From an uncultured Flavobacteriales bacterium (GTDB lineage: Bacteria; Bacteroidota; Bacteroidia; Flavobacteriales_D; Parvicellaceae), in assembly GCA_964455265.1 (NCBI GenBank), contig CAYVVI010000001.1, positions 4,593-68,592 on the forward strand: a DNA stretch of 64,000 bases, read 5' to 3'. The notes under the pieces are model-generated. The model was not told the origin of the DNA. It did no database searches and saw only the letters and a program-made list of their open reading frames with translations. Within the stretch, counting starts at the first letter, position 1, and each line of letters starts with the position of its first letter. The position numbers and the translations under genes were made by a program. Positions 23,653 to 64,000 of this stretch are shown piece after piece.

Positions 23653-24420
23653 TTATAACAGTTTGGCTAATTCAAAGTGCATTCCGTCTTTTCTGGAAAA
23701 ATGACCCCCCCAATAAAATCCCAGCTTGTTTGCAATAGAAACAAGTTCTCTTAAGCTTCCTTTTTCTCCTACAAGCGCGGGGTTTACCCCCAAAGCATTC
23801 CATTTGGCGTTTAAATCTATGGCAATGCCATAAGCATGTGAGCTTAGAGTTTTAGAACTTCCTCGAATTAATCTTGCATTAAGTGCCCCATCGTAGGTTA
23901 ATATTTTATCCGTTAATCCTGCTTTTTTCCAATCTGTAAAAAGTTGTTGAAATTGGGGAGCTGCTTTTTTGTGAACAGAAATCCTATTAGTGTTATAAGG
24001 AGGAAGTTTTTTAATCTGTGGCAGTTCTATAGTAATGATGTTATCTTTTCTAAAACCATTAGTTATGTTAACACTACTTCCATTTGCAAGAACGTTAAAT
24101 TCAATTTTACCAAATATGCTTTGCATTTGTGGGGCTGTGAGTGGTTTAAAGTTTGGTGCTAGTGGCCAATTTGAACCTAGTTTTTCTTTGTCTTTCGGGT
24201 CTTCTACCAAGAAAAAACCTAACTGCATGGCCTTGGCATAGCTTTGATTACCCACTACACCATCTACAAATAGTTTGTGTTTTTTTTGAAAATCTTTAGT
24301 GGCGAGTTCTGTTCTATTTCCAAAATCCCCATCAGCAATAAGCTTATAGCCCTGACCAATCAGGAAGTATTGCCAATTTATTACTTGTTTACCTTTGTCT
24401 CCTTTACGTAGTGCTTTCAT
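23653..24420 (-). CDS. peptidoglycan-binding (PG_binding_1) + M15 (VanY-like) D-Ala-D-Ala peptidase
   Basis: The PG_binding_1 repeat is GDKGKQVINWQYFL...DGDFGNRTELATKDFQKKHKLFVDGVVG. The M15 metal ligands are SSHAYGIAIDLN and WGGHF..DGMHFE. There is no signal peptide. The start is set at ATG 24420 because the track start (GTG 24456) lies inside the promoter box. Confidence 0.8.
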   Translation of the reverse strand: MKALRKGDKGKQVINWQYFLIGQGYKLIADGDFGNRTELATKDFQKKHKLFVDGVVGNQSYAKAMQLGFFLVEDPKDKEKLGSNWPLAPNFKPLTAPQMQSIFGKIEFNVLANGSSVNITNGFRKDNIITIELPQIKKLPPYNTNRISVHKKAAPQFQQLFTDWKKAGLTDKILTYDGALNARLIRGSSKTLSSHAYGIAIDLNAKWNALGVNPALVGEKGSLRELVSIANKLGFYWGGHFSRKDGMHFELAKLL

Positions 24421-24458
24421 AGTTTTATGAAGTTTGATTTCACAAATAAAAAACACGC

Positions 24459-24478
24459 CACTGTCATTTTATGACCGT
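24459..24478 (-). promoter_or_regulatory. conserved palindromic promoter-proximal motif (copy 1), sense ACGGTCATAAAATGACAGTG
   Basis: One of five near-identical 20-bp copies in the window. On the sense strand it is followed by GCGTGTTTTTTATTTG (a TTTG-type -7-like box) and then the M15 peptidase gene. Confidence 0.7.
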
Positions 24479-24743
24479 AAAGAAAATTGTTAAAAAGTTT
24501 TTTTAGCACTCAGAATTTTTTGGTATCAAAAAATTAATCGATACTACTAAAATAGTACCTGAGAATTTACTAGGTGAGCTTTTTAGTTATAGCTAATGCT
24601 TGGTTTTATATGATAAAATTCTACTTTCATTCAATTCTTTTACCATTTTTCCCCGAATTACAAGAAACCATATTTATCAATATTACAAAAAGTGAATGAA
24701 TACTTAGCTTTTAGAGGCAGAATAGATTAAAAAGTGTTTAACT

Positions 24744-24881
24744 TTAGATAAAATGTAAAGAAGTTAGTTGTAATTTTTTTACTTGCTTCATACCCCAAGG
24801 GTCATCATCATAGCCATCATCGAACCAACCTTTTGGGCTGCGTTCTTCTTGTCTTTTTGGCCTATGTAGGCGTTCGCGCAT
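24744..24881 (-). pseudogene. leader-only mini-ORF (45 aa: MRERLHRPKRQEERSPKGWFDDGYDDDPWGMKQVKKLQLTSLHFI)
   Basis: Translated by hand. The first 13 residues and their DNA match the shared cargo leader (MRERLHRPxRQEE), and similarity then ends. It is either a remnant of a cargo gene or a very small cargo. Confidence 0.4.
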
Positions 24882-24893
24882 CTTGTTACGACA

Positions 24894-25361
24894 TTAAAAA
24901 TAAAGGGCGTCAATAATTAGTATTAAAATAATGGTGGAGAGTGTAAATATGTTTGTTTTACGTTCAATAGTTTTTTTATATCTTTTGTAGAATAAAAGAC
25001 CTAAGACTGCTGAAATAATAAAGGACAGAACCAATTGCCACTCTAAGTAGATTTGTAGAGGAAATTCTTCTTTTTTATTAGGAAATAACAGATAGAATAT
25101 ACGCATCAATGCATTTGTAAAAGAAAAAATAGCAGTCACATTTACAATAAAGAAAACAACATTTACAAACCATTTTTTTTCAATAATAAGGTGTGTGACC
25201 AATACCAATACATAGAAAGGGATTAAAATGTAACTGACTTCTTTTTTTATAAATCCCAAAGTAAAAAATAGAGAAGCATAAGATAATAAGATGTATGCTA
25301 AAAATAATGTTCGTGACATAGGTTTATATTTAAAAATATTAATGTGTTTATTTAACAACAA
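24894..25361 (-). CDS. polytopic membrane protein (candidate immunity protein)
   Basis: 155 aa with 4-5 TM helices. It overlaps the stop of the upstream leader-bearing protein by 14 nt. Confidence 0.55.
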   Translation of the reverse strand: MLLNKHINIFKYKPMSRTLFLAYILLSYASLFFTLGFIKKEVSYILIPFYVLVLVTHLIIEKKWFVNVVFFIVNVTAIFSFTNALMRIFYLLFPNKKEEFPLQIYLEWQLVLSFIISAVLGLLFYKRYKKTIERKTNIFTLSTIILILIIDALYF

Positions 25362-26529
25362 ACGAATCTTTTACCGCATAGTTAAATTTATTTTTTTCAA
25401 TTGATACTGTTTCCTCACTACCCCAAGTCCAAACAGTAAAGACAGCCCTTCCATCCTCTATTGTAATTTTTGATTTTACAATTATGTAATGATTTCCTAG
25501 AACCGAATTAATATAACTATCTGGTTTGTCCGATTTTTTCGATCCCCCTTTTCCTTTTTTATCCGTACCATCTAATTGATTCCAATCTACTAGCAAAACA
25601 ATAGTATTTCCTTTATTAAATTCATTGTTAATTGATTCTATACTTGGTGAAGATGTACGGTTTTCAGTAACGTTATCAATATTTTCTAACCAATAACTCA
25701 TCTCCCAATGGGTTGTAAATGCAGTTACCCCAGCATCCTCCGATGGATCATAGTCATAAATGGCATTTTCACTGTGTCTAATAGCAGAGAATAACATCCA
25801 GTCAACGCTTGCCATTCCCTCAGTAACTGTTTGGTTAAAAGTGTCAGGATTAGCCTTAACTATAAGATTATTGTAAGTAAATTGTCCCATTTGATATAAA
25901 TCAATAACAGATCGCACATAGTCAATCGGGTCATAACTAGACCAAATAACAGAGTATGCTGCAGGACCACAAAGATTTAAACTTTTTTGTTTGTGAGATT
26001 CTGGATTATTTACTCTTTCAATTAACTCTTCGGCCAGCTGTGAAGCAGAGATATTTTTATACGTTGGAGTTATTTCATATGTTTTATCAAGAAAAGCAAT
26101 ATATCTTTTATTCGGATTTTCCTTAAAAAAGTTAATTTTTTTAAACGCTTTTTGTTTATCACTCTTGTCCTGTTCTGGTAAATTGTTTTGAGTTATCAAA
26201 CTCTTTTCCTCTTGTTGAGAAGCACTTGTGGTTTTTGTATCACTAGTTTCAGCTAGTTCTTCTTCTTGCTTAGGTGTATCCACATTGTTGCCTCTAAGCA
26301 TTCCATTAGGAAAGTCATCAGGGTTAATGGTATGTCCTTTAAGTCGTGTAAAGACATTATCAACTTTTTTTCTATCTCCAAATACTCCGTTAGGGAAGGC
26401 ATCAAGAAAGTTGTAGCCACTTAAATCGGACTGAGTTGATTCCGTTTCGTTTTCCTGCATAGCACTATCGTTCTCGCTTCTTCTGGCGGGTTCTTCTTGT
26501 CTTGTGGGTTTATGTAGGCGTTCGCGCAT
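25348..26529 (-). CDS. leader-bearing cargo candidate with papain-like Cys-protease-type C-terminal domain
   Basis: The long-form N-terminal leader spans about 95 aa (MRERLHKPTRQEEPARRSEN...FPNGVFGD...FPNGMLRG...DTPKQEEE). The C-terminal domain has a candidate nucleophile in SLNLCGPAAYS and a His in LGNHYIIVKS. The domain family call is tentative. Confidence 0.6.
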   Translation of the reverse strand: MRERLHKPTRQEEPARRSENDSAMQENETESTQSDLSGYNFLDAFPNGVFGDRKKVDNVFTRLKGHTINPDDFPNGMLRGNNVDTPKQEEELAETSDTKTTSASQQEEKSLITQNNLPEQDKSDKQKAFKKINFFKENPNKRYIAFLDKTYEITPTYKNISASQLAEELIERVNNPESHKQKSLNLCGPAAYSVIWSSYDPIDYVRSVIDLYQMGQFTYNNLIVKANPDTFNQTVTEGMASVDWMLFSAIRHSENAIYDYDPSEDAGVTAFTTHWEMSYWLENIDNVTENRTSSPSIESINNEFNKGNTIVLLVDWNQLDGTDKKGKGGSKKSDKPDSYINSVLGNHYIIVKSKITIEDGRAVFTVWTWGSEETVSIEKNKFNYAVKDSFVVK

Positions 26530-26570: not shown

Positions 26571-26590
26571 CACTGTCATTTTATGACCGT
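26571..26590 (-). promoter_or_regulatory. conserved palindromic promoter-proximal motif (copy 2)
   Basis: The sense strand reads ACGGTCATAAAATGACAGTG, then GGATTGTTTTTATTTGCAAAAACCACTAAATTTACTCTACC ATG of 25348-26529. Confidence 0.7.
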
Positions 26591-34733: not shown

Positions 34734-35330
34734 TTGCTCCAACAAAATGATTACGCTGTGATAGATAAAGCAATAAAATTTTTAGGCGAACAAGTAAACG
34801 ACTACGTAAAGTTAAAGACTGGTGCCACTACCGATAAGGTGGTTATGTCAAATGTGGTTACACAGTCTGGCTCAATTGCTATAGCAGATAACAATGTAGC
34901 GCTTACCTTAGTTAATATAGAAGAAGAAAGAATTACAAAAGTACAAACGCCCTATGTTGTTACATCAGAAGGAGAGAGTATAAAAGTAAACCCTGAAATT
35001 AAGCTTAATTTCTATATACTTTTCTCTTCTTACTCTTCAAATAACTACGAAGACTCACTGCGACTACTATCTCACGTAATCACATTTTTTCAATCGAAAT
35101 ATGTGTTTAATCAACAAAACTCTCCTTTGCTTGATAACCGCATTGAAAAATTAATAGTAGACATGTTTTCCATACCGATAGAGCAGCAAAATTATTTATG
35201 GACATATGTTGGTGCTAAGTACTTGCCTTCGGTAGTTTATAAGGTGCGTTTAGTGGCAATTCAAGAACTACAAGCTCTTGAATCGCTCACAGAAGTTGAA
35301 TCATTTGGGTTGGATATTTCAAACAGTTAA
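34734..35330 (+). CDS. DUF4255 (Afp16/Pvc16 N-terminal-like) tail cap/terminator protein
   Basis: First gene of the structural operon. Size and the N-terminal pattern (IDKAIKFLGEQVNDYVK) are typical of DUF4255. TTG 34734 overlaps the -7-like box, so GTG 34758 is the more likely start. Confidence 0.65.
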   Translation: MLQQNDYAVIDKAIKFLGEQVNDYVKLKTGATTDKVVMSNVVTQSGSIAIADNNVALTLVNIEEERITKVQTPYVVTSEGESIKVNPEIKLNFYILFSSYSSNNYEDSLRLLSHVITFFQSKYVFNQQNSPLLDNRIEKLIVDMFSIPIEQQNYLWTYVGAKYLPSVVYKVRLVAIQELQALESLTEVESFGLDISNS

Positions 35331-35334
35331 TTAA

Positions 35335-36384: not shown

Positions 36385-36424
36385 TTTAAACTAAGAATAA
36401 TAAAAAACAAAAAAACAAAAAACT

Positions 36425-37745: not shown

Positions 37746-37762
37746 AGCTATTTATTTTATTC

Positions 37763-39199: not shown

Positions 39200-39200
39200 A
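38765..39200 (+). repeat. 436-bp block identical to 37310-37745
   Basis: See the partner copy. Confidence 0.85.
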
Positions 39201-40123: not shown

Positions 40124-40300
40124 ATGCCCGTAGAAATAAAAGAATTAATAATTAAAGCTTTTATTGGTAGTGATGAAGACAAAAGTTCTGACCCAAAAAA
40201 AAAGAAGAATGATTCTTGTGGTAAAACACCCAAAAACGAATCCGTTGATGAAAGCATAAATCAAATGCTGTATTTAATAAAAAATAAGAACGAAAGATAA
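40124..40300 (+). CDS. small conserved eCIS protein (Afp6/DUF5908-like)
   Basis: Translated by hand; it is below the track cut-off. The 58-aa product is MPVEIKELIIKAFIGSDEDKSS...NQMLYLIKNKNER. The MP.EI.EL.IKA N-terminus and the position between the tube and LysM genes are typical. Its stop overlaps the next ATG (TAATG). Confidence 0.55.
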   Translation: MPVEIKELIIKAFIGSDEDKSSDPKKKKNDSCGKTPKNESVDESINQMLYLIKNKNER

Positions 40301-51094: not shown

Positions 51095-51499
51095 ATGGCA
51101 CAAGAGACAAGATACACAAGCGAAGCAACAGCAACAGCAGAAGGGACAACAAGAGATGCTGGAGGAACTACTACGGTAACAAAAATAGATACTACTCGTC
51201 CTATTTATCAAGAACCTATCAGAGAAGTTCCTGTAAAACCTATATCACCAGTTACTCCTCCAACAACTGGACTTAAGGCCGGTGTTTATGATTTTGTAAT
51301 TACTACGGTAGATCAATTTGGGGGACCAACTTATCATAAGTTTAAAGTAGAAGTGAGACCAGGAAAAAGAGGGAGTACAACACCAAATGTTCAACAAGAG
51401 TTTGCTTTTACGGAGCAAAACTTTGATAAATATACTGAAATATACCAACCCACTTTAGATAATTCTACCCTTGAAAGACAAACAATAAAGTTAGCGTAA
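51095..51499 (+). CDS. small Thr/Pro-rich protein ending in a partial Ig-like repeat
   Basis: 134 aa with a T/P-rich N-terminal half. The segment GVYDFVITTVDQFGGPTYHKFKVEV matches the distal part of the Ig-like repeat. Confidence 0.5.
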   Translation: MAQETRYTSEATATAEGTTRDAGGTTTVTKIDTTRPIYQEPIREVPVKPISPVTPPTTGLKAGVYDFVITTVDQFGGPTYHKFKVEVRPGKRGSTTPNVQQEFAFTEQNFDKYTEIYQPTLDNSTLERQTIKLA

Positions 51500-51521: not shown

Positions 51522-52661
51522 ATGCGCGAACGCCTACATAGACCCATAAGACAAGAAGAACCCGCTATAAGAAGCGAGAACGATAATGCTATGCAGGCAA
51601 ACGAAACGGAATCAACGCAATCCGATTTAAATTCGTCTAACGATTACAGCCTTCTTGATGCCTTCCCTAACGGGGTATTTGGAGATAGAAATAAAGTCGA
51701 TAATATCTTTACGCAACTTAGAGGACATACCATTAACCCCGATGACTTCCCTAATGGAATGCTTGGAGGCAACAATGTGGATACACCTAAGCAAGAAGAA
51801 GATTTAGCTGAAAATAAAAACACTCATCACCAAGAAGTAGCACAAAATAAAGATGCTTTACTCAGCAGTACAATTCCACCGCACAATTTAAAAGTACAAA
51901 AACACACCATACAACAGGGCGAAACCCTTACATCTATAGCCAAAAAATATGGAGTTAGTGTGCAAAGCTTGGCTAAATGGAACAACATTGCTGATATAAA
52001 CAAAATTATAGCAGGTGATAGCTTAATTGTTTCTGACCCTAACCGACCTACCGATTGGGCTAAATTTACGGTCTACCCTACCGTTAAAGAATCATCTGGG
52101 TGGCTATTTGGTGCTGAGGGTACGCAATCCATCAGTGTAACAAGTGGTATAGAACTGGCCTCGGCATCTATTTTAAATTACGATGTTGTATATTTAAAGG
52201 GTAATTTGCTTGACCAAATAAAAAAAGACCCTGATATGCTAGCTAAAGAAAATATCCTAATTAATAAATTAAAAAATGACCTTCGGTTTGGTAAGGAAAG
52301 TTTCTACTATACAAACCAATTTGGTGTTGAGTTTGGTGGCAAACGTTGGTCTGCACCCAACGAAGAATGGAGTTCTACAGATGCTAACAACCCCTTGCTG
52401 CATAAAGAAACGCTTAACGTAGCCACGAATGAGTTAACTTGGGTACTGCGCCATGCAACCGTAAAATATTGGGCAGAAGTGAGTGCCGATGGCAGTATTA
52501 CAATTCAGTATAGACTATGGGATAGACTGGACTTGAGTGGCTCTAAAGGCCGCTCAGAAGCTTACAACACCATATCCGATGTGTTGGGCTTTATGTATCA
52601 CGATATGGCAGGAGGAAATATAAACCTACAAACCCGAGCAGAATGGAGCGTAAGCAAATAA
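51522..52661 (+). CDS. leader-bearing cargo candidate: leader + LysM + unknown C-terminal domain
   Basis: Has the long-form leader. The LysM domain is HTIQQGETLTSIAKKYGVSVQSLAKWNNIADINKIIAGDSLIV. The C-terminal domain of about 200 aa was not recognised. Confidence 0.7.
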   Translation: MRERLHRPIRQEEPAIRSENDNAMQANETESTQSDLNSSNDYSLLDAFPNGVFGDRNKVDNIFTQLRGHTINPDDFPNGMLGGNNVDTPKQEEDLAENKNTHHQEVAQNKDALLSSTIPPHNLKVQKHTIQQGETLTSIAKKYGVSVQSLAKWNNIADINKIIAGDSLIVSDPNRPTDWAKFTVYPTVKESSGWLFGAEGTQSISVTSGIELASASILNYDVVYLKGNLLDQIKKDPDMLAKENILINKLKNDLRFGKESFYYTNQFGVEFGGKRWSAPNEEWSSTDANNPLLHKETLNVATNELTWVLRHATVKYWAEVSADGSITIQYRLWDRLDLSGSKGRSEAYNTISDVLGFMYHDMAGGNINLQTRAEWSVSK

Positions 52662-53520: not shown

Positions 53521-53555
53521 AATTTGACGAAAAAAGAACTTTACCTTGGTTAAAG
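53521..53555 (+). pseudogene. remnant of the 3' end of a lipoprotein-immunity paralog
   Basis: AATTTGACGAAAAAAGAACTTTACCTTGGTTAAAG matches the 3' end of 53591-54112 (CAATTTGACGAAAAAAGAACTTTGCCTTGGCTAAAA, encoding FDEKRTLPWLK) but has no ORF body upstream of it. Confidence 0.55.
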
Positions 53556-53590
53556 TAAAGCGTGCTATATTATTTATAAACTCGAGCAGA

Positions 53591-54147: not shown

Positions 54148-54840
54148 ATGCGCGAATACCTACATAGACCAAAAAGACAAGAAGAACCCGCTAGAAGAAG
54201 CGAGAACGATAATGCTATGCAGGAAAACGATTTAATCTCACGCTTCCCTAATGGAATATTTGGGGACAATAATGTAGATACACCTAAACAAGAAGATTCT
54301 TTTACAACGGATAAAACTGAAACAATTGAAAGTGAAAAAAAATCTGTAAATGACTTAACCACTAGCGAAAAAGGAGTTGACTTTATTAAGAGTTTTGAAG
54401 GGAAAAGATTAGAGCTTTATAATGATGATGCAGGATATGCTACCATTGGATATGGACACCTTGTTCACTACGGAAAAGTCGGGACAAATACAGAGAAAGA
54501 AAAGGAGTTTAAATCTGGTATTACAGATGAAAAAGCAATAGAGCTACTAAAACAAGATGTAAAAGACAAAGGTGAAAAATATGTTAAATCATATGTTTCA
54601 GTAAAATTGACACAGGAACAGTTTGATGCGCTAGTGTCATTTACGTTCAATGTTGGTAGTGGAAATTTTAAAAGCTCTAGTTTGTTAAAGGAAGTAAATA
54701 AAGAGACAGCAACTTTAGAAACGATTAAAGAAAAATTTATGTTGTGGAATAAAGCAGGAGGGAAAGAACTTTCTGGTTTAACAAAGCGAAGAGAAAGAGA
54801 AGCTAAAATCTATAATGAAGGTATATATGAAAACAATTAA
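54148..54840 (+). CDS. leader-bearing cargo candidate: short leader + GH24 (T4-type) lysozyme
   Basis: Has the short-form leader (MREYLHRPKRQEEPARRSENDNAMQENDLISRFPNGIFGDNNVDTPKQE). The lysozyme signature is FIKSFEGKRLELYNDDAGYATIGYGH. Confidence 0.85.
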   Translation: MREYLHRPKRQEEPARRSENDNAMQENDLISRFPNGIFGDNNVDTPKQEDSFTTDKTETIESEKKSVNDLTTSEKGVDFIKSFEGKRLELYNDDAGYATIGYGHLVHYGKVGTNTEKEKEFKSGITDEKAIELLKQDVKDKGEKYVKSYVSVKLTQEQFDALVSFTFNVGSGNFKSSSLLKEVNKETATLETIKEKFMLWNKAGGKELSGLTKRREREAKIYNEGIYENN

Positions 54841-55291
54841 TTCTATAAAAAAAATAGTGTATCTACTACTCCCATTTGTTTCTTGGTCTTGTGTAGAAAT
54901 TAAAGATAATCAAAGCCCTAGTAAATATATTATGAAGGAGTGGCAAATTTCTGATTATAAATTTTCAGGAATTTCCGCTTTAACAACAGAAGAAGCTGAT
55001 AAATACATTGGGCAGAAAATTAAATTAGATAGCAACTATGTTATTTACTTTAACGATAGCATTAGCTATCCTAAATATGAATTTAAAAGAGTAGAGTCCA
55101 ATTCATTTTTCCATGAAGGATACAAAACCAATAAAGATGTTTTTTCAGTTAATGTGGACAGTCTTTTGGTTTTTGATATTATTTGTGAAAATGAAGGCTA
55201 TTATAATATTGTTTTTGTAGAAGAACAAAACATTCTGATTCAGAATATAGATGGTGTGTTTTTTATTTTAACCCCCTTAATAAAAAAATAG
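54815..55291 (+). CDS. lipoprotein (candidate lysozyme immunity protein)
   Basis: Signal/lipobox IVYLLLPFVSWSC. It overlaps the end of the lysozyme gene. The alternative start is ATG 54827. Confidence 0.6.
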   Translation: MKVYMKTINSIKKIVYLLLPFVSWSCVEIKDNQSPSKYIMKEWQISDYKFSGISALTTEEADKYIGQKIKLDSNYVIYFNDSISYPKYEFKRVESNSFFHEGYKTNKDVFSVNVDSLLVFDIICENEGYYNIVFVEEQNILIQNIDGVFFILTPLIKK

Positions 55292-55349: not shown

Positions 55350-56288
55350 ATGCGCGAACGCCTACATAGACCCATAAGACAAGAAGAACCCGCTATAAGA
55401 AGCGAGAACGATAATGCTATGCAGGAAAACGATTTAATCTCACGCTTCCCTAATGGAATATTTGGGAACAATGATGTAGATACACCTAAGCAACAAGAAG
55501 AGCTAGCTGAAACTAGTGATACAAAAACCGCAAACGCTCCCCAACAAAAAAAAGAAGTAGAAAAACAAATAAAGCCTAGAGATAAGTATGAGGAAGCAAT
55601 CTTAAAAGATAAAATTGTTTATACTAAAAACTATGGTTGGATTGATAAAACACATGCTTTCCCTATTGATAAAAAAACTCCAACAGGAGCTAAAAAATTA
55701 TGGAATACAATAGAAAAGGAACTAGGGATTAAATCAAATTCACCAGGAGATAATAATGGATTTAGAGTTGCTTATAGACAAGATGCAAAGGTTGCAAGTT
55801 TTTTACCTAGAATAGGAGTAACAAAAGAATATTTTGTTAAATATAATCTAACAACTAAACAGAAAGAAAGTGTTGCATTATCAATATTTCAAGAAGTTTC
55901 TAAAGAATTTGAAGAATTTCAAGGATGGGCTTTTTGGAGTGGGTCATCCTTCGAGCCAGCTGACCTACCCTCAAATATGCTCAGCTTCTATTCTGCGATA
56001 AGACCTAGACTTACGGAAGAAAAAATTATGTTACTAGTAGAACCCTTAACAAAAGAGCAATCTATAGAGGTTTACAGAGAGTATCCAGGAACATTTACAG
56101 ATAGTAAGCACAAAAATAAAACATTTACCCCAAAATTCTTTCCAAATAAATATAGCCCTAAAAATCCTGTTGTTCCAAAAGAGTTACAGGAGGTAATTCC
56201 AGCAACAAAAGGCACTAATTTTAGAGACTGGCTTCCTTTACTTGACATTCATGGAGGTGTTCCCCCAATAACAGGTCCAAAATATTGA
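55350..56288 (+). CDS. leader-bearing cargo candidate: short leader + unknown C-terminal domain
   Basis: Has the short-form leader. The 124 bp spanning 46 nt upstream of the ATG and the first 26 codons duplicate 51474-51597. The C-terminal domain of about 230 aa was not recognised. Confidence 0.65.
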   Translation: MRERLHRPIRQEEPAIRSENDNAMQENDLISRFPNGIFGNNDVDTPKQQEELAETSDTKTANAPQQKKEVEKQIKPRDKYEEAILKDKIVYTKNYGWIDKTHAFPIDKKTPTGAKKLWNTIEKELGIKSNSPGDNNGFRVAYRQDAKVASFLPRIGVTKEYFVKYNLTTKQKESVALSIFQEVSKEFEEFQGWAFWSGSSFEPADLPSNMLSFYSAIRPRLTEEKIMLLVEPLTKEQSIEVYREYPGTFTDSKHKNKTFTPKFFPNKYSPKNPVVPKELQEVIPATKGTNFRDWLPLLDIHGGVPPITGPKY

Positions 56289-57205: not shown

Positions 57206-60200
57206 ATGATAGTTTACAACGTATTTGCCGACAAAGTATTAGATTCTATTAAAGTTCTTTTTTTAGAAATAAAAGAAGAATTGCTAAATGAGGACACCCT
57301 AACTCTGTATAAAAATGGACAAAAAGACGAATTCATTAAAGAACAGTTTACTCCATTACTTGAGGACGTTTCTTCCAAACTAAAAGAGCAGTATGCTATT
57401 GCAACTTCGCTTAACGATAATAACGATGATGTATGGAACAGCGTATATTTCTTCTCTGATATGTATTATGAATTGGTAACAGGAGTTATCAAATTAATTT
57501 CTATAAGAAATGAAGACATTGATGGTAGTATACCCTTGTTAGAAACATTAGCAACCATTAGACAGCAACTAGATCAAAATAGAAATGTAGAAGCCCTTTC
57601 TGTAGTAAGAGATTATATAAAAAACAGACCTGCTACTTATTCCGACAAACCCTTTTTTCAAAGCCAAATAAATGCACTTCTAAATTCTCGTCAAGGTATT
57701 TATTTAGTAATTCCTCCAAAAACTTTACAAGAATATTCTAATGGTACCTTATTGGCGTATGTTGATGGTTTAAGTATTGAGAGTGCAAGCACAACAACAT
57801 TACCTCCAGGCACAGAACTTGATCAGGTTACGGGTGAATTGAAGGTCTCAGACACATCTCAACTTGTGTCGGGGCTATACATTTTAGGTATTAGCACTAC
57901 CATTGAAAACAGTATAGAATCTTCAGAAACGCTTTTCTTACAAATAGGTCAGGAAATAACGGCAACTTATACCGTTGCAGAAGCAAAAAACAAATCAGAA
58001 TATGAAGACAATTTTGAATTGGCAACCGTTGCTACTATTGATGGGGCAGCAATTACAGAAGCGTTTTTAATCAATAGCGTACTTCCATTAGGAATGGATA
58101 TAAACCCTCAAACTGGTGAAATATTTGTTTTTAACAAAGAAAATCTATCAGAAGGTACTTACATTTTTGAAGTAAGAACAGTAGATTCTCTTAGCAGAAT
58201 TATTGACCATACAATTACCATTATTATTCTTTCAGACAAAATCACAAGCTATGTTATTAACCCTACAAAATCGATTGAAGATTATAGCATTGGTGATGTG
58301 TTGGCAGAACCACTAGACAAAGACGTTGTATATACAAGTATAGAAGTAAGAGGATTGCCTAATGGAATTGGTATTAACACAACAACTGGAGATATATTTG
58401 TTGAAGACGAAAGTTTAATAAAACCCGGTACTTATGAGGTGTCTATTAAAACCATAGAAGATAACGGGCTTGAAAATCTTACACAAATAACGATAGTAAT
58501 AGGAGAGCTTGCCGATACCGAAGCGATATATACTGTTAACCCTCCAAAAGCGACATTATCTGACTATAAAAATTTTGATGTGTTAGCATTCGCATCAGAC
58601 AATAATGGAAATATAGTTCAAGCAAGTTTTATTAAAGGAGCTCTCCCTCCTGGAACATCTTTAAATAAATTTACAGGTGAAATTATTGTTACAGAGTCTG
58701 ATAATCTAATTAGCGGAAAATATACATTTACCATTTCTACAGTTGATTCTCGTGGTGGATATAGTGAAACAACCCTTACTATTCCTATAAGCACGGAAGT
58801 TCGTTATAAAATTTCAAGAGCAAGAATAGTTGATGATTATTCTATAAATGAACTTGTTGCCATTGCTTTTGATCCTATTGCGCCCATAGTGTCTGCAGCT
58901 GTTGTAAGTGGAACATTACCTTCGGGCTTAGAACTGCTTGATAATGGAAATATTAGAGTGAGTGACGATAGTTTGTTGCAAGCTGGAACGTACACATTTA
59001 CGGTAGAAACAACGAATGATAATGATGATACTTCATCACACGAAATTACACTCTCATTTTTAGAAGACCAAGAAGCCGAGTACATAATAAAATCTCCAAG
59101 AATTGTTGACACATATGTAGATGGAGAAATTCTAGCAGAAGCCATAGATGCTGATGGAAAAATTATTGAAGCGAAAATATTGAAAGGAAACTTACCAGGA
59201 GGGGTTGAACTTAATGCCGATAATGGAAATATATATGTGAAAAACGCACAAGAACTTTCTGCAGGGTCTTTTACGAATATACAAATTGAAACCAAGGATA
59301 GTAGAGGGGGAAGAACACAACATAATATCACCTTAGAAATATTTCCAGATATTGAGGCGGTATATGTGGTTTTACCGCCTTTGGCCATAAACCAGTACGT
59401 TAACGGACAAAATTTAGCATTGGTAACAGATGGAAATGCACCCATAGTATCAGCAAAAATAATTACAGGGAGTTTGCCTACGGGAGTTGCTATGGACACA
59501 TCTACAGGTATTATAAGTGTTATAAATGCTGCTAAATTAAGGGCAGGCACTTATCCATTAACTATTGAAACTAAAGATGAGTTAGGCGGAATATCGCAAA
59601 ACTCCATTCAATTAATTTTAAATCCCGTAGATCAAGAAGCTTTTTATGTTATTGCTCCTGCAAAGAATATTGATAGTTATATCAATGGTTTTGTTTTGGC
59701 CTCTCCAGTTGATCCAGATGGACAAGTGGTTAGTGCCGTAATTATTAGCGGAGTTTTGCCTTCAGGAACATCTCTAAATTCAATATCTGGCGTTATAGCA
59801 GTAACCGATATTAATGCTCTTATGCCTGGAACGTATATTGTTGGTATAATTACAACCGATGAGAATAGTCAGACAACAACGCATTCTGTACAACTTACAA
59901 TCAATCCTGATAACGAAGCAGACTATACTCTACTTCCACAAAAAAAATATGACTTGTATGATGACGGAGAATATATTGCTACTGTTACAGATGCAGATGG
60001 AGACATAGAATCAGCAGAATTATTAAGTGGGGTTTTACCTAGCGGCATCACTTTAATTACAGATGCTGAAATGGGTGCAGATGTGGCTTCTGACCTTAAT
60101 TTATCTGACCCAATACCAGTTGGATATATTTTAGTTACAAATAAAACAGTTTTGCAATCGTCAAATGTTGTTGTAAGTATAAAAACAGTTGATATTACTG

Positions 60201-61084
60201 GAGGAAAAACTACTAGTGAATTGAATATTGTTCTTCCTGATGATAGTGCGGCTGTATATACCGTTCTTGACGCTAGAATGAAGTTCTCTTATCGTAATGG
60301 AGATATACTTGCTTTTGTAGAAGATGCCGATGGGCCAATTGTCTCTGCCCAAATAACATTGGGGGCTTTGCCCTCTGGTGCTTCACTTAACTCTACCAAT
60401 GGTAGCATTACTGTATCTGACAGAACACAACTACAAGGAGGCGACTATACCTTAAGTATTCTTACAGAGGATAGTCTTGGTGGGCAAACAGGTAATGTAA
60501 TTACTATTTCTATTAGAGACATCCCTGTAATTAAAGATTTTGTTGGAAGTATATGTGAGCGCCTTCACAACCTAGAAGAGAGATTTAAAACAATATTAAC
60601 TACTAATGATGTTATAAATAGAACAATATTAGATTTTACTAAAGTGATAGAAGGAAAGGTGTGCTCTGACTTTAAAAACCCTGGAGGAGAAATACCTTGG
60701 ACTCAACCACAAAAAGAAAGTGTAATTAAAAATGATACGCTATCGATAACTAATCCTATAAAAGCAGCTATTTTAGAGAAGCATCAAGAGATTGGGAACC
60801 TTCCAAATGGACCAGAAAAAGATAGGGCACAACAGGACTTAAACTACCTTACCGATTTGTATAACGAAGTTATTATAAACTTTATACAGCTTACAGGGAT
60901 GAGGGTTTCGGACGTGCCAGTAAATTCTAACCATGATATTCGTGTAACATATAATACACTAAAAACTCAAATGCAAAGTTTAGCTAACGTAACAGAATTA
61001 ACACACCTAAGACAAAACATCGCAGGATTTAGTTATACCGGTAGAACACAGTTAAATATGTTAATTCAGGCATTGTTGAGTTAA
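57206..61084 (+). CDS. 1292-aa protein with about 10 tandem Ig/cadherin-like repeats flanked by helical end modules (fibre/adhesin-like)
   Basis: A repeat of about 90 aa (consensus EA.Y.V.P......Y.NG..LA.V.D.DG.IVSA....G.LP.G..LN...G.I.V.....L..G.Y...I.T.D..GG) begins near residues 240, 340, 437, 527, 617, 707, 797, 887 and 1000, plus a partial copy near residue 175. The N- and C-terminal regions are non-repeat and helical. Confidence 0.6.
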   Translation: MIVYNVFADKVLDSIKVLFLEIKEELLNEDTLTLYKNGQKDEFIKEQFTPLLEDVSSKLKEQYAIATSLNDNNDDVWNSVYFFSDMYYELVTGVIKLISIRNEDIDGSIPLLETLATIRQQLDQNRNVEALSVVRDYIKNRPATYSDKPFFQSQINALLNSRQGIYLVIPPKTLQEYSNGTLLAYVDGLSIESASTTTLPPGTELDQVTGELKVSDTSQLVSGLYILGISTTIENSIESSETLFLQIGQEITATYTVAEAKNKSEYEDNFELATVATIDGAAITEAFLINSVLPLGMDINPQTGEIFVFNKENLSEGTYIFEVRTVDSLSRIIDHTITIIILSDKITSYVINPTKSIEDYSIGDVLAEPLDKDVVYTSIEVRGLPNGIGINTTTGDIFVEDESLIKPGTYEVSIKTIEDNGLENLTQITIVIGELADTEAIYTVNPPKATLSDYKNFDVLAFASDNNGNIVQASFIKGALPPGTSLNKFTGEIIVTESDNLISGKYTFTISTVDSRGGYSETTLTIPISTEVRYKISRARIVDDYSINELVAIAFDPIAPIVSAAVVSGTLPSGLELLDNGNIRVSDDSLLQAGTYTFTVETTNDNDDTSSHEITLSFLEDQEAEYIIKSPRIVDTYVDGEILAEAIDADGKIIEAKILKGNLPGGVELNADNGNIYVKNAQELSAGSFTNIQIETKDSRGGRTQHNITLEIFPDIEAVYVVLPPLAINQYVNGQNLALVTDGNAPIVSAKIITGSLPTGVAMDTSTGIISVINAAKLRAGTYPLTIETKDELGGISQNSIQLILNPVDQEAFYVIAPAKNIDSYINGFVLASPVDPDGQVVSAVIISGVLPSGTSLNSISGVIAVTDINALMPGTYIVGIITTDENSQTTTHSVQLTINPDNEADYTLLPQKKYDLYDDGEYIATVTDADGDIESAELLSGVLPSGITLITDAEMGADVASDLNLSDPIPVGYILVTNKTVLQSSNVVVSIKTVDITGGKTTSELNIVLPDDSAAVYTVLDARMKFSYRNGDILAFVEDADGPIVSAQITLGALPSGASLNSTNGSITVSDRTQLQGGDYTLSILTEDSLGGQTGNVITISIRDIPVIKDFVGSICERLHNLEERFKTILTTNDVINRTILDFTKVIEGKVCSDFKNPGGEIPWTQPQKESVIKNDTLSITNPIKAAILEKHQEIGNLPNGPEKDRAQQDLNYLTDLYNEVIINFIQLTGMRVSDVPVNSNHDIRVTYNTLKTQMQSLANVTELTHLRQNIAGFSYTGRTQLNMLIQALLS

Positions 61085-61103: not shown

Positions 61104-62588
61104 ATGCGCGAACGCCTACATAAACCCATAAGACAAGAAGAACCCGCTATAAGAAGAGAGAACGAGAGTGCTATGCAGGAAAATGAAACGGAATCAACGC
61201 AATCCGATTTAACCTCCTCTAACGATTACAGCCTTCTTGATGCCTTCCCTAATGGAGTATTTGGAGATAGAAAAAAAGTTGATAATGTCTTTACCCGACT
61301 TAGAGGACATACCATTAACCCCGATGACTTCCCTAATGGAATATTTGGCGATAATGGTGTAGATACACCTAAGCAACAAGAAGAGATAGCTGAAACGACT
61401 AACCTGAATGATACAAAAACCATAAATGCTTCTCAACAAAAAAAAGACATAGAAAAGCAACTAACATCTTCTTTGTTTAAAGGTAATGACCAACTTTACT
61501 GGACACTAAACAGAGGAACAAAATTTGATAACGACAAAGGACATTATCTTGGAGAAGGTTCTACGGGTGAGTATGTTATTCTTATACAAAAAGCACTGAA
61601 CCTTATTTACAAAGGCGACCCTACTTACAAACCCTTAGTAGAAGAAAAAGATTTTGGGACAAAAACCAAAGCAGCCGTATCCAAATTTCAGAAAGATTAT
61701 GGTTTAAAAGGAGGTGCTAATGGTGTGGTGGGACCAGAAACGATTGAACGATTGGATAAGGAGGTGTTTAATTTGGAAAGTAAAAAACAAGAGGAGAGTA
61801 AAAAAGAAGATATTTTAAACTTAAAGGTTAAATCAAAAGGATTTAAAGGTCGCTTGATTATTAATAATTCTATTGATGACTATAAAGAAGAAATTCATGT
61901 TGTTACAGGTGAAGAAATCAAAAAAGCTGGTCAGTTCTATAGTTTTGCAATACTCATGAATGATATTGGCCTTCTTGATAGCGATGCAGATTTACACTTT
62001 AAGCATACTGGTATTAGTGACGCTTTTGACGGTTCAGATATTGAATATTATGCAGACTATGAAGCTGTGTGGGAGTTTAAAAGTGAAATTGTTAGAATGG
62101 ATATGTCTGTTCCAGTTGGATCTGTTCATATAACAGGATCAAGTCTAATAGATTATCCTTTAGCATTAATAGGGTCGGGCATATTCAGCCAAATATTTAA
62201 AGCCTCTTTGCGACCTTTATACAACCAAGCTGCTAAAAACATAAAATCAACAGCTCTAGGATTAGTTAATAGTAATAAAGTGTCTTTAACTAATGCCGCT
62301 AAATGGGCTAATGAGGCCCGTAATAATTTAAAAATTAACTTTCTCAGATCAACTCCCGAAGACTTAAGAAACTTAATTTTTAAGTACAATGAAAAGAGAA
62401 GTTTTAACAAATGGGGTACAAAAACATATGATCAGCTAATACAATCAGGTAAAACAGATATGGATATTATTAACTCAGCGGCAAATCCTCAACTATCCTT
62501 GGAAGCAGTAGGAAAGGATATATATAAATACTTGGGCGATGAAGCTCTGCCTGTTTTGAAAAAATATGGAATTTCACCTAAAAAATAA
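61104..62588 (+). CDS. leader-bearing cargo candidate: leader + PG_binding_1 + unknown C-terminal domain
   Basis: Has the long-form leader. The PG_binding_1 domain is GSTGEYVILIQKALNLIY...FGTKTKAAVSKFQKDYGLKGGANGVVGPETIERL. The C-terminal domain of about 270 aa was not recognised. Confidence 0.7.
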   Translation: MRERLHKPIRQEEPAIRRENESAMQENETESTQSDLTSSNDYSLLDAFPNGVFGDRKKVDNVFTRLRGHTINPDDFPNGIFGDNGVDTPKQQEEIAETTNLNDTKTINASQQKKDIEKQLTSSLFKGNDQLYWTLNRGTKFDNDKGHYLGEGSTGEYVILIQKALNLIYKGDPTYKPLVEEKDFGTKTKAAVSKFQKDYGLKGGANGVVGPETIERLDKEVFNLESKKQEESKKEDILNLKVKSKGFKGRLIINNSIDDYKEEIHVVTGEEIKKAGQFYSFAILMNDIGLLDSDADLHFKHTGISDAFDGSDIEYYADYEAVWEFKSEIVRMDMSVPVGSVHITGSSLIDYPLALIGSGIFSQIFKASLRPLYNQAAKNIKSTALGLVNSNKVSLTNAAKWANEARNNLKINFLRSTPEDLRNLIFKYNEKRSFNKWGTKTYDQLIQSGKTDMDIINSAANPQLSLEAVGKDIYKYLGDEALPVLKKYGISPKK

Positions 62589-62592
62589 GAAG

Positions 62593-63081
62593 ATGAATAC
62601 AATAAAATTACTGTTATTCGGAAGAGCCAACAAAATAATGGAGTTAGATATTAACACAGGGAAAATAAAATTTACCGATGTATATTCCAGTGAAGAAGAA
62701 GAGTTGGAATATCACACTAAATCTTTCAAAGAAAATAAAGAAAATAAGTTCAAAAGTACAAATGGTTTTTACTCCATAGGGGTAAATGGCGATTATCTCG
62801 GTTTTTATATTGATATTGAAAATAATAACCCAAAAATATTATACCAAAATACGACAATTGACTTTTTAGATGGAGAATTTAAATGTTATCAACTTAACGA
62901 AAAAGAAGGGGTATTTGAATGTGTTAGACCCTACAACTTTAAGTGGGTATATGAGTCATTTTTTCGTGGCCCATTCGATGATGCAGATGAAGATGTCAAT
63001 TTTGGATTATGGATAATGTTGCTTTACAAAGATAAAGATATACTGGCGAGGGTCATAAAGCATCATAGTCGAAAGCTTTGA
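62593..63081 (+). CDS. small cytosolic protein (candidate immunity protein)
   Basis: 162 aa from ATG 62593, 2 nt after the upstream stop. No signal peptide. Confidence 0.5.
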   Translation: MNTIKLLLFGRANKIMELDINTGKIKFTDVYSSEEEELEYHTKSFKENKENKFKSTNGFYSIGVNGDYLGFYIDIENNNPKILYQNTTIDFLDGEFKCYQLNEKEGVFECVRPYNFKWVYESFFRGPFDDADEDVNFGLWIMLLYKDKDILARVIKHHSRKL

Positions 63082-63104
63082 TTATTACAATAAAAACAAA
63101 AAAT

Positions 63105-63212
63105 TATGAATATAATTCAGATAGCGGAGCAATTTGGATAATTGCTTATCCTATTACTGCTTTTGTATTATTTTTAACAGCAACATTATTAGACTATATT
63201 AAAAACAAGTAA
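63105..63212 (+). pseudogene. 3' fragment of a membrane immunity gene (paralog of the end of 56285-56722)
   Basis: Encodes YEYNSDSGAIWIIAYPITAFVLFLTATLLDYIKNK-stop, compared with YEYNSDSGAIWIVVYPITVCVLLLIAALLDYIKNKK-stop at 56611-56722. It has no start codon and no N-terminal part. Confidence 0.65.
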
Positions 63213-63219
63213 TATATCA

Positions 63220-64000
63220 ATGTTCGAGCGCCTACATAGACCCATAAAAAAAGAAGAACCCGCTAGAAGAAGCGAGAACGAGAGTGCTATGCAGGAAAAT
63301 GAAACGGAATCAACGCAATCCGATTTAACCTCCTCTAACGATTACAGCCTTCTTGATGCCTTCCCTAATGGAGTATTTGGAGATAGAAAAAAAGTTGATA
63401 ATGTCTTTACCCGACTTAGAGGACATACCATTAACCCCGATGACTTCCCTAATGGAATGCTTACAAGAAATAATGTAGATACACCTAAGCAACAGGAAGA
63501 TTTAACAGAAACCTCAGAGCAAGCCATTGTTAACAACACAGGCAGCAGCACAAAACTAGAGCTAGAGTTTAATGCCTTTATACCTAACAACTTAAATACT
63601 CAAGCTTCTCCACCACTTCACCATAAATTTTTAACAGAAATCGCTATTGATATCTTTGATTTTATAAAAACAAAAGGAGGATCTGCAACTGGCGCACTAT
63701 TGGTAATAGCCCAAGCAAGTTTAGAGTCAGGTTATGGACAAGCTGCTATTAAGTTTAATGACTATAATTTGTTTGGAGTAATGACACTTGGATCTGACTA
63801 TAAACGAACTACTTCTCACGGCAAGGTTAAGGATTACTCAAATGCAGGAAAGTATAAAGGGGCTATAGAAGACTTTTATAATAAAATTGTTAAAACATGG
63901 CCGAATTATGCTGAGCTACTAAAGAAAACATCATTTACAGCAGACGATATTGATAAAGCTCTTTATACTGGGAAGTATATTGAATGGAAAGAGGAAAGAA
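63220..64000 (+). CDS. leader-bearing cargo candidate: leader + GH73 N-acetylglucosaminidase (3'-truncated by window edge)
   Basis: Translated by hand; it is not in the track because it runs off the window. The product begins MFERLHRPIKKEEPARRSENESAMQENETESTQSDL...FPNGVFGD...FPNGMLT. The glucosaminidase core is ALLVIAQASLESGYGQAAIKFNDYNLFGV. Confidence 0.75.
   Translation, partial: MFERLHRPIKKEEPARRSENESAMQENETESTQSDLTSSNDYSLLDAFPNGVFGDRKKVDNVFTRLRGHTINPDDFPNGMLTRNNVDTPKQQEDLTETSEQAIVNNTGSSTKLELEFNAFIPNNLNTQASPPLHHKFLTEIAIDIFDFIKTKGGSATGALLVIAQASLESGYGQAAIKFNDYNLFGVMTLGSDYKRTTSHGKVKDYSNAGKYKGAIEDFYNKIVKTWPNYAELLKKTSFTADDIDKALYTGKYIEWKEER

Follow-up and report, generated by a model that had tools for sequence, protein, structure and literature searches.

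A clade-Ib contractile injection system locus with leader-bearing, immunity-paired toxins that are probably aimed at other bacteria

The stretch of DNA studied here (64 kb, referred to as a whole as the window) belongs to contig CAYVVI010000001.1 of an uncultured Flavobacteriales bacterium, and it carries a contractile injection system (CIS) locus that also encodes at least eight toxins: seven cargo proteins that start with a common leader and a leaderless Endonuclease_NS_2 toxin. As judged from its genes, the locus is a clade-Ib CIS of the AlgoCIS/tCIS lineage. We think that this machine is probably armed with interbacterial toxins, loaded by its ATPase by means of the leader, and released by lysis of the producing cell. 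Among machines of this kind that may be directed against bacteria, it appears to be one of the clearest candidates. Open reading frames (ORFs) were mapped and scanned with Pfam, remote matches were sought by PDB sequence searches, families of endolysins, holins and spanins were assessed with PHROG scans, and the membrane character of partner ORFs was judged by hydropathy. Structure models were obtained with AlphaFold2 (AF2), graded by the predicted local distance difference test (pLDDT), and used for fold searches against the PDB. For comparison, a set of 80 related CIS loci (L001–L080) and the extra contigs L081 and L083–L087 were used, and relatives of Cis12 were sought among 185,579 species genomes. 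DNA repeats within the window are labelled D or I (e.g., D3, D6–D9, D13, I15–I20).

The core of the machine lies on the plus strand at 34734–51086, where the ORFs with their Pfam and PDB matches give all the expected CIS genes, from the cap to Cis12, except the tape measure (Table 1). A first-pass annotation of the window, made from the sequence alone, had named these genes at these places and in this order, and the ORFs, Pfam and PDB matches bear it out, although its expression "full core" is slightly overstated because no tape-measure gene was recognised. It had also placed a LysM domain in the tube initiator, which Pfam does not report at E ≤ 0.01. The 1259-aa and 1285-aa proteins that it called gp6-like and gp7-like have no Pfam match and correspond to the solved baseplate proteins Cis11/Alg11 and Cis12/Alg12, respectively. 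The length and homology of Cis11 suggest that it forms a cage; in Cis12, the conserved match spans approximately residues 1–598, and the C-terminal half is lineage-specific. The 349-aa protein that had been left as unknown is present and can now be matched, weakly, to the cap-adaptor chains All3326 and SalCis16b, and the 58-aa DUF5908 protein is a putative plug by analogy with AlgoCIS. The sheath genes contain internal DNA repeats (D3, D8 and D9) and have ~54% identity to Bacteroidota loci. The start codon of the cap gene is uncertain, as the called TTG start is overlapped by the conserved promoter element described below.

From the cap gene to position 63081, the gaps between consecutive genes on the plus strand are never larger than 58 nt; therefore, they make up one long operon of ~29 kb (34734 to beyond 64000), and the cluster extends past the right end of the window. 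Besides the core, this operon encodes a 1292-aa protein with Ig-like (immunoglobulin-like) repeats that is a candidate tail fibre or target binder. No scanned ORF of the 64-kb window matched a capsid, portal or terminase family in Pfam, and none matched a TssB/C/K, TssJLM or ClpV family, in line with the first reading; head and packaging genes outside the window would be unseen. A prophage, an R-type tailocin and a canonical type VI secretion system (T6SS) were rejected, as their defining genes were not found and the cap, plug and ATPase specific to extracellular CISs (eCISs) are present.

The gene of the Afp15-like ATPase is located on the divergent arm, opposite to the structural operon, and the single AAA domain formerly ascribed to its product is confirmed (6e-29). 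Homologues of this ATPase, up to 53% identical, are encoded within 10 kb of Cis12 in 28 of the 80 related loci. Seven proteins of the locus start with the common leader MRERLHRPIRQEEPAIRSENDNAMQEN..FPNG(V/I)FGD..NVDTPKQEE; what the first-pass annotation had hinted at is thus a real element. It is built around an FPNG(V/I/M)(F/L)G motif and comes in a long form of ~100 aa, with a duplicated FPNGxxG motif (five proteins), and a short form of ~58 aa (two proteins), the first module being degenerate in the copy of the PoNe protein. Mean column identity among the five long copies is 78% over ~100 aa, and the leader copies are 83–94% identical at the DNA level over up to 300 nt, the parts downstream of them being unrelated.

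The leader is acidic (pI 4.5–4.9) and strongly hydrophilic, with ~72% of disorder-promoting residues. It has no hydrophobic core and therefore is not a Sec signal, and it shows no features of type IX secretion system (T9SS), PAAR, Rhs or LXG carriers either. No match to it was returned from 5.8 billion proteins, which is a weak negative since the paralogues in the window itself were not returned, nor was any found in IMG/VR, in the JGI metagenomes or in the 80 related loci. In contig L081, two proteins have a different common N-terminal motif, DDDYWGxDDY, which suggests that leaders are lineage-specific, so that each CIS lineage may have its own. In the Photorhabdus virulence cassettes (PVC), an N-terminal region of ~50 aa steers diverse payloads into the tube, and loading needs the Pvc15 ATPase, for which one AAA domain is annotated (Jiang et al. 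2022, PMC9054023). The prerequisites for such leader-dependent loading are seen in the present locus, namely the leader and an ATPase gene whose operator also precedes a cargo gene.

Five of the cargo genes are in the structural operon, and the divergent arm carries the other two leader-bearing cargos and the leaderless nuclease. The GH24, GH73, LysM, PG_binding_1 and Endonuclease_NS_2 domains previously recognised were all recovered with Pfam, and the toxin described as PD-(D/E)xK turned out to be a PoNe DNase (PDB 9waq_B, 1e-15). Every complete cargo gene is followed by a partner ORF, and five partners overlap the cargo gene by 4–26 nt. Their character is also as formerly described: lipoproteins for cargos 1 and 2, polytopic membrane proteins for cargos 3 and 7, and cytosolic proteins for cargo 4, PoNe and Endonuclease_NS_2. 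The predicted location of the partner would fit the likely site of action of the toxin, with lipoproteins for the peptidoglycan (PG) enzymes, cytosolic proteins for the two nucleases and polytopic proteins for two toxins of unassigned target.

Three of the pairs are corroborated elsewhere (PoNe/PoNi, cargo 7 with its membrane partner, and cargo 1 with the 188-aa lipoprotein), and two of them recur beside CIS ATPases in other contigs (L081 and L084). Moreover, the C-terminal domains (CTDs) of three cargos are polymorphic-toxin families that are also carried on Rhs, PAAR or DUF4157 proteins. The toxins have no export signal; therefore, the periplasm of the producer would never be exposed to its own PG hydrolases, and for this reason the lipoprotein partners make sense only against an incoming toxin. 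In our opinion, these periplasmic partners are the strongest argument that the sequence offers for bacterial targets, kin included, and they support the earlier proposal of periplasm-acting toxins. The broader proposal, that the cargo is antibacterial and immunity-paired, is likewise well supported by the pair matching 9waq, by the pairs found in L081, L084 and L085 and by the polymorphic-toxin CTDs. No eukaryote-directed domain was found in the scans of the window ORFs.

In the pair of cargo 6, PoNe and PoNi match both chains of one solved complex, PDB 9waq, and their genes overlap by 10 nt. After its degenerate leader, cargo 6 has an apparently helical region, SH3-like and LysM-like modules (weak matches), a hydrophobic region at ~770–890 and the PoNe domain. 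Its translation probably begins with the GTG at 34520, and the TTG called at 34550 was rejected because the conserved promoter element overlaps it. Between PoNi and the endonuclease toxin there are two seemingly paralogous tetratricopeptide repeat (TPR)-type proteins, one of them with an N-terminal VSHDNDDDWQFF motif, which could be spare immunity proteins or cargo chaperones.

The CTD of cargo 1 belongs to a family with 216 cluster representatives. Among the matches listed, it stands at or near the C-terminus of proteins of 71–1550 aa, and its carriers include Rhs, PAAR, DUF4280, DUF4157 and S8/subtilase proteins, often with LysM, SH3 or PG_binding modules. Against the PDB, the family profile matched only an Rhs boundary region contributed by family members. 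The genes of the two candidate immunity lipoproteins have paralogous 5′ ends (repeat D6), and in L084/L085 a cargo-1 homologue comes right after a CIS ATPase, with a homologue of the 188-aa lipoprotein behind it (31% identity, 1e-13). The GH24 domain of cargo 2 matches phage endolysin families in PHROG; a lysis cassette made of this protein and its lipoprotein partner was rejected because the GH24 protein bears the shared leader. For the CTD of cargo 3 (window 55551–56285; residues 68–312), AF2 gave a confident model (pLDDT 88.8), for which the fold search against the PDB returned no match (best E 0.5). In the three contexts examined, the gene with this CTD is followed by that of a small polytopic membrane protein, and in L083 the CTD lies inside a gene module resembling a phage tail. 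The CTD of cargo 4 has no PDB sequence match.

Cargo 7 has no PDB sequence match either, and its fold matches are weak, none reaching E ≤ 0.001: staphopain (prob. 0.97, E 7e-3, TM-score 0.27–0.38) and a papain-like toxin/immunity entry, 9l5u. Its Cys74 and His234 are invariant. L081 (Logan SRR14492192, 17.9 kb, 33% GC) encodes a Cis12 homologue and then a cargo-7 homologue (72%), the membrane partner (59%) and the CIS ATPase. This contig is a second, related CIS fragment, which contains two AAA ATPase genes and a leucine-rich repeat protein. A polytopic membrane protein also follows the cargo-7 homologue in two metagenome-assembled genomes (MAGs), from Aureispira (L086) and Crocinitomicaceae (L087). 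In L086, the homologue and a 137-aa polytopic membrane protein (10001–11414) lie within the dcw cell-division/cell-wall cluster, between a Mur ligase and ftsA/ftsZ, a location that may hint at a target in envelope synthesis or may merely be an insertion site.

Table 1. Features of the locus, ordered by position in the window (E values follow the family or PDB entry matched)
Feature	Position	Strand	Evidence
TPR-HisKA_3 histidine kinase (14181-15938) and GerE/LuxR response regulator (16827-17450)	14181..17450	-	Pfam
Leaderless endolysin, PG_binding_1 + Peptidase_M15_4, candidate particle-release enzyme	23653..24420	-	Pfam; PHROG endolysin families, best 3e-23
Palindromic operator before endolysin gene	24461..24478	.	
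45-codon ORF, leader start (MRERLHRPKRQEE) then divergent; probable cargo remnant	24744..24881	-	Repeats D13, I15-I20; translation
155-aa membrane protein, five hydrophobic segments, candidate immunity for cargo 7	24894..25361	-	Hydropathy
Cargo 7: long leader + papain-like cysteine-protease toxin	25348..26529	-	AF2 pLDDT 76; weak fold matches
Palindromic operator before cargo 7	26573..26590	.	
Cis15/Afp15-type AAA+ ATPase, single AAA domain	26613..27920	-	AAA 6e-29; p97 D1-like 3e-35
Palindromic operator before ATPase gene	28045..28062	.	
115-aa acidic cytosolic protein, candidate nuclease immunity	28274..28621	-	Weak YezG-like 0.0096, below family cut-off
Endonuclease_NS_2 toxin	28627..29265	-	Endonuclea_NS_2 2.9e-34; K/D-rich, apparently disordered N-terminus
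Two acidic TPR-type proteins, 166 and 138 aa	29389..30309	-	TPR matches for the 138-aa protein; mutual similarity by eye
PoNi immunity protein	30607..31344	-	PoNi_C 4e-33, PoNi_N 6e-17; PDB 9waq_A 2e-12
Cargo 6: ~1060 aa, C-terminal PoNe DNase (PD-(D/E)xK)	31335..34520	-	PDB 9waq_B 1e-15, residues 938-1066
Palindromic operator before PoNe cargo operon	34558..34575	.	
Palindromic operator before structural operon	34701..34718	.	Exact match
Cap Cis16A/Alg16A	34734..35330	+	Pvc16_N/DUF4255 7e-32
Cap adaptor, Cis16B-like, 349 aa	35335..36384	+	PDB All3326 5e-5, SalCis16b 4e-4, Alg cap adaptor 0.08 (weak matches)
Two paralogous sheaths	36425-37744 and 37763-39199	+	Phage_sheath_1C (~1e-13), Phage_sheath_1
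Two gp19-type tubes	39247-39675 and 39678-40121	+	Phage_T4_gp19 8e-46 and 1e-41
Cis6/Afp6 putative plug, 58 aa	40124..40300	+	DUF5908 1.5e-12
Tube initiator Cis7	40300..40974	+	CIS_tube 3e-40
VgrG-like spike	40977-42725	+	GPD domain; Phage_base_V 4e-21
PAAR	42737-43015	+	PAAR 3e-21
gp25 sheath initiator	43008-43442	+	GPW_gp25 1e-23
Cis11, gp6-like baseplate, 1259 aa, long N-terminal extension	43450..47229	+	PDB 7b5h All3317 2e-144, 7aeb Alg11 2e-139
Cis12, gp7-like baseplate, 1285 aa	47229..51086	+	PDB 7b5h All3315 7e-118, 7aeb Alg12 7e-101
134-aa protein, apparent Ig-like segment, possibly fibre-associated	51095..51499	+	Sequence inspection; no family match
Cargo 1: long leader, LysM, ~200-aa polymorphic-toxin CTD	51522..52661	+	LysM 1e-13
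Two paralogous lipoproteins, candidate periplasmic immunity for cargo 1	52643-53500 and 53546-54112	+	Signal sequence + Cys (..AVALQAC)
Cargo 2: short leader + GH24 lysozyme	54148..54840	+	Phage_lysozyme 1.6e-39
158-aa lipoprotein, candidate immunity for cargo 2	54815..55291	+	Signal sequence + Cys (..FVSWSC); 26-nt overlap with cargo 2
Cargo 3: 312 aa, short leader + Rhs-type toxin CTD	55350..56288	+	Homologues at Rhs C-termini (P0027, P0028)
Two small polytopic membrane proteins, candidate immunity for cargo 3	56285-56722 (4 hydrophobic segments), 56719-57180 (2)	+	Hydropathy
1292-aa acidic protein, about nine Ig-like repeats (~93 aa each), apparently helical ends	57206..61084	+	He_PIG 1e-28, 4 stretches
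Cargo 4: long leader, PG_binding_1, CTD without assigned family	61104..62588	+	PG_binding_1 1.7e-9
171-aa cytosolic protein, candidate immunity for cargo 4	62566..63081	+	Weak SUKH_6 0.006, below family cut-off; 23-nt overlap
Orphan immunity remnant, 86% identical to 3′ end of 145-aa membrane-protein gene	63092..63213 (vs 56599-56720)	+	Repeat D7
Cargo 5: long leader + GH73 glucosaminidase	63220..64000, cut by window end	+	Glucosaminidase 1.6e-7, above family cut-off

The transcription units of the locus are connected by an 18-bp palindrome, ACGGTCATAAAATGAC(A/C)GT, which occurs at five sites (six matches, one site being matched on both strands, versus 0.08 expected by chance). A conserved promoter-like element of ~60 nt surrounds it and has a Bacteroidetes-like TTTG box at its end, and all five sites are oriented with transcription. 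One of them precedes the gene of a leaderless PG hydrolase, which the first-pass annotation had grouped with the cargo as a gene at 23653–24456. It has no leader and matches phage endolysin families, and it is more likely a lysis enzyme than cargo. Its real start is the ATG at 24420, the called GTG at 24456 having been rejected because the conserved promoter element overlaps it. An endolysin under the operator of the machine agrees with lysis as the way out and suggests that particles are freed in this manner. A GerE response regulator and a HisKA_3 kinase, encoded ~6 kb further left, are candidate regulators of the palindrome; the "shell" of eCIS loci is known to include GerE regulators, in some cases next to a kinase (Geller et al. 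2021, PMC8213781).

The locus also bears traces of cassette turnover. A 45-codon ORF on the divergent arm starts like the leader and then diverges, an orphan piece of an immunity gene stands before cargo 5, and the segment 28134–28236, before the ATPase gene, repeats at 93–95% identity the 5′ end of the endonuclease toxin gene and the region upstream of it (29222–29323). These truncated duplicates look like scars of cassette shuffling, and the remnants together with the DNA-level conservation of the leader give the pattern of polymorphic toxin loci: a conserved N-terminal part, unrelated C-terminal toxins, downstream partners and orphan fragments. As a side observation, the 45-codon ORF continues as ..GWFDDGYDDDPWGM.., which resembles the DDDYWGxDDY leader motif of L081.

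Downstream of the endolysin, at 20525–23636 on the minus strand, there are genes of two proteins with one hydrophobic segment each, one of them with a weak match to the TRADD-N-associated 2TM family; behind them come the genes of a patatin-like phospholipase (Pfam 6e-24; phrog_25573 2e-57) and of two polytopic membrane proteins. They could be lysis helpers, a further lipase toxin with its immunity, or an unrelated conflict module. The first part of the window (1–13400) resembles a mobile and defence island, with an IrrE-type peptidase and its helix-turn-helix partner, an LRAT/NlpC-like protein, a C5 cytosine methylase, a ParB_N protein, a resolvase, GmrSD and a weak HEPN match. The contig may thus represent a plasmid or else a genomic island. 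A 128-bp stretch therein (12626–12753) shares 88–94% identity with unannotated sequence on plasmids from Bacteroides, Riemerella, Myroides, Sphingobacterium and others, and probably marks where a small mobile element ends. Together with the best matches of the sheath, tube and ATPase and with the TTTG box, this stretch points to a probable Bacteroidota source of the DNA.

When compared with its relatives, the locus has a chassis that is ordinary within the clade and a payload module that is not. The sheath, tube and ATPase are 53–64% identical to those of Bacteroidota loci, and Cis11 and Cis12 are ~33–44% identical to their closest genomic relatives. The closest Cis12 among the species genomes is that of a Melioribacteraceae MAG (44% identical), followed by Cyanobacteria and Bacteroidota at ~35%. 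None of the cargo, partner or leader sequences was found in the 80 related loci. Moreover, the ORF scans of the window gave no DUF4157 domain (PF13699), a frequent eCIS marker that is not a strict requirement; a motif regular expression, used to count DUF4157-like ORFs, found none in the 64 kb versus at least one in 56 of the 80 loci. Here, a DUF4157-type payload appears to be replaced by an arsenal of polymorphic toxins with a private leader and matched immunity. Several of the loci L001–L080 (at ~12600–19200) encode, downstream of Cis12, proteins of 900–1500 aa with a strongly hydrophobic internal segment; they resemble the PoNe cargo with its hydrophobic region and may represent a recurrent class of large CIS cargo.

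Putting these elements together, a possible course of action can be outlined. A regulator acting on the shared palindrome, for which the GerE response regulator is the candidate, would turn on the structural genes, the cargo, the ATPase and the endolysin together. The ATPase would recognise the leader and feed unfolded cargo into the lumen of the tube, as Pvc15 does with PVC signal peptides, and a fraction of the cells would lyse, freeing the particles. The Ig-repeat fibre would then bind a bacterial surface, the sheath would contract, and the spike and tube would breach the outer membrane. The lysozyme, the glucosaminidase and the PG-binding toxins would act in the periplasm, and the PoNe protein may use its hydrophobic region to move the DNase across the inner membrane. 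Kin would survive incoming shots through their periplasmic, membrane and cytosolic immunity proteins. Release is the least certain of these steps, as the machine might instead fire while attached to the inner membrane of its producer.

Several points weigh against this outline. All functions were assigned from homology and gene order. The Endonuclease_NS_2 toxin has no shared leader, two of the immunity assignments depend on sub-threshold matches (SUKH_6 0.006 and YezG-like 0.0096), and cytosolic immunity to a nuclease would be required whatever the target. No window ORF matched a tape-measure family (Afp14/Cis14), tape measures being poorly conserved, and the Ig-repeat fibre candidate has no PDB sequence match, that is, no relative in solved CIS structures. 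PHROG scans gave no holin or spanin family among the neighbours of the endolysin or of the GH24 lysozyme. Finally, Cis11 contains at residues ~649–690, within its N-terminal extension, a lineage-specific hydrophobic stretch, VSNVILLLIGLFLMFIDQF (mean hydropathy 2.46 over 19 aa), with no aligned counterpart in any Cis11 homologue of the 80 related loci, which could be a membrane anchor.

This last point leads to the most serious alternative, in which the same machine with the same antibacterial cargo works like the Aureispira T6SSiv, held at the producer's inner membrane by the baseplate cage and firing on contact, the endolysin being unrelated or remodelling the producer's own wall. Clade Ib holds members that are released, thylakoid-anchored or inner-membrane-associated, and because of this diversity the mode of action cannot be read from a gene list; the "extracellular" label of the first-pass annotation is, for its part, not derivable from sequence. 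Besides the stretch in Cis11, analogies support an anchored machine: the Aureispira T6SSiv kills Vibrio by contact, with membrane contact via the Cis11 cage (bioRxiv 10.1101/2024.01.29.577165), SalCIS associates with the inner membrane (PMC13266070), and a haloarchaeal eCIS-like cluster with toxin–immunity pairs works as a T6SS bound to the membrane. The occurrence of cargo-7 homologues in Aureispira points the same way. Nevertheless, no window ORF has the signal sequence, three transmembrane helices and large hydrolase domain of SalCis20, which was also matched by none of ten queries against PDB sequences; the TssJLM and TssK families are missing from the scanned ORFs; and the ORFs included neither a fibre nor a Cis13-like protein that has a transmembrane helix, although no search aimed at Cis13-like proteins was made. 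Among solved structures, Cis11 is closest to the cyanobacterial tCIS (2e-144) and to the released AlgoCIS (2e-139), with SalCIS far behind (4.5e-67). The operator that the endolysin shares with the structural operon, the long Ig-repeat fibre candidate, and an N-terminal cargo leader with a dedicated ATPase, as in eCISs that carry their cargo in the lumen, would also favour a released particle. We think that an extracellular mode is likely, roughly twice as likely as the anchored one.

It is very improbable that the PG hydrolases and their small neighbours are lysis cassettes that free an eCIS targeting eukaryotes, with the nuclease immunity merely protecting the producer before lysis. The GH24 and M15 proteins do match phage endolysin families, some spanins are lipoproteins and holins are membrane proteins of small size, eukaryotic cells are a target of the lethal MAC nuclease Pne1, and cytosolic nuclease immunity says nothing on the target. 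However, the GH24, GH73, LysM-CTD and PG_binding_1-CTD proteins share their leader with the PoNe DNase and the Rhs-type toxin, and the sole hydrolase that resembles a true endolysin has no leader. The pair formed by the LysM-CTD protein and its lipoprotein is kept beside another CIS ATPase, with the CTD also occurring on Rhs, PAAR and DUF4157 carriers. We know of no precedent for at least five separate lysis cassettes in one operon, and neither a neighbour with a holin or spanin match nor a eukaryote-directed domain was found in the window. Most improbable of all is a cytoplasmic, self-directed CIS like those that exist in Streptomyces, a degenerate prophage tail or an R-type tailocin beside which toxins with another delivery route merely happen to lie: the mobile/defence island in the left 23 kb (resolvase, ParB_N, methylase, GmrSD) and the shuffled remnants agree with chance co-location, but the toxins are within the structural operon (gaps ≤58 nt) and under common operators, the leader resembles none of the Sec, T9SS, PAAR, Rhs or LXG carriers, there is no capsid, portal or terminase gene in the window, the eCIS-specific DUF4255 cap, DUF5908 plug, AAA+ ATPase, Cis11 and Cis12 are present, and periplasmic immunity would be pointless for a self-directed cytoplasmic device.

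In the boldest reading, whose chance is somewhat below even, the locus encodes a natural cargo-loaded "tailocin", a released particle that injects at least eight T6SS- and Rhs-type toxins into other bacteria and whose private leader code allows toxin–immunity cassettes to be swapped by recombination. If so, no earlier clade-Ib system would have had a complete antibacterial arsenal with matched immunity, and the puzzle of the missing immunity of antibacterial eCIS toxins would be answered. The leader and the ATPase would also be at hand as a pair with which to load antibacterial payloads, and the cargo-3 domain (residues 68–312) would be a toxin fold with no solved relative. In any case, it is a concrete, bench-ready system, with at least seven leader-tagged toxins of recognisable antibacterial families, in which the predicted compartment of the partner predicts the site of action of each complete toxin. 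It also has its own ATPase, a fibre candidate, a defined operator and an endolysin that seems to be regulated with the machine. It could teach whether periplasmic and cytoplasmic toxins can be delivered into Gram-negative bacteria by a released particle, how cargo is chosen and whether the clade switches between released and anchored modes. A compact leader/ATPase pair able to load PG hydrolases and nucleases would be useful for engineered antibacterial injection particles.

Few eCISs of the environment have known targets, and the antibacterial eCIS toxins described so far were shown through heterologous expression only and mostly lack immunity genes (PMC8213781). The first-pass view that eCIS cargo is mainly eukaryote-directed or of unknown target is out of date in the light of Geller et al. 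(2021), the Aureispira T6SSiv and the haloarchaeal cluster. Geller et al. (2021, PMC8213781) had put forward the idea of immunity-paired antibacterial cargo in eCISs. They described antibacterial eCIS-associated toxins (EATs), among them the periplasm-active PG hydrolase EAT10 and the toxin–immunity pair EAT5. Clade relatives kill bacteria by contact. Most of those antibacterial EATs had no recognisable immunity gene, which the authors called a mystery (PMC8213781), whereas every complete cargo gene of the present locus is partnered, and several of the toxins belong to classical T6SS or Rhs families.

Of the solved systems, AlgoCIS from Algoriphagus machipongonensis (PDB 7aeb, 7adz; Xu et al. 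2022, PMC8894135) is alike in its gene order, in the short DUF4255 cap with a separate adaptor, in the Afp6-type plug, the Cis11 with a long extension and Cis12, and in an Ig-type fibre candidate. Its cargos also share a disordered N-terminal region, its cargo sits in the tube lumen, and its cargo Cgo1 is toxic to, or inhibits, E. coli (PMC8894135). Unlike here, the AlgoCIS cargo carries DUF4157, has no reported immunity and amounts to two proteins, compared with at least seven, each complete one partnered; the leader of the present locus is a different, highly conserved sequence, and its fibre candidate has no detectable relative in solved structures. The Aureispira T6SSiv and SalCIS share with the locus the affiliation to clade Ib and the Cis11 cage, predicted for the latter, and cargo-7 homologues occur in Aureispira genomes, although the one in L086 is not adjacent to CIS genes. 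Those two systems are anchored or inner-membrane-associated and have a trans-envelope complex or the SalCis20 membrane hydrolase, neither of which was found in the window. No effector–immunity pairs have been described for them: immunity is unmentioned in the ixotrophy preprint, and none was identified for the SalCIS effectors.

As regards loading, PVC is alike in having an N-terminal loading region and a single-AAA ATPase (PMC9054023), but its signals have "rare conserved residues" and its toxins are eukaryote-directed, whereas the leader described here is 78% conserved column-wise and fused to predicted antibacterial enzymes. As regards the toxins, the locus resembles the PoNe/PoNi modules of T6SSs, with PoNe followed by PoNi, and the Rhs systems, with a conserved N-terminus, a variable C-terminal toxin, downstream immunity, orphan fragments and recombination scars. 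It differs from both in the carrier, which is not PAAR, VgrG, MIX or Rhs, but a private leader in a phage-tail-like operon with its own ATPase.

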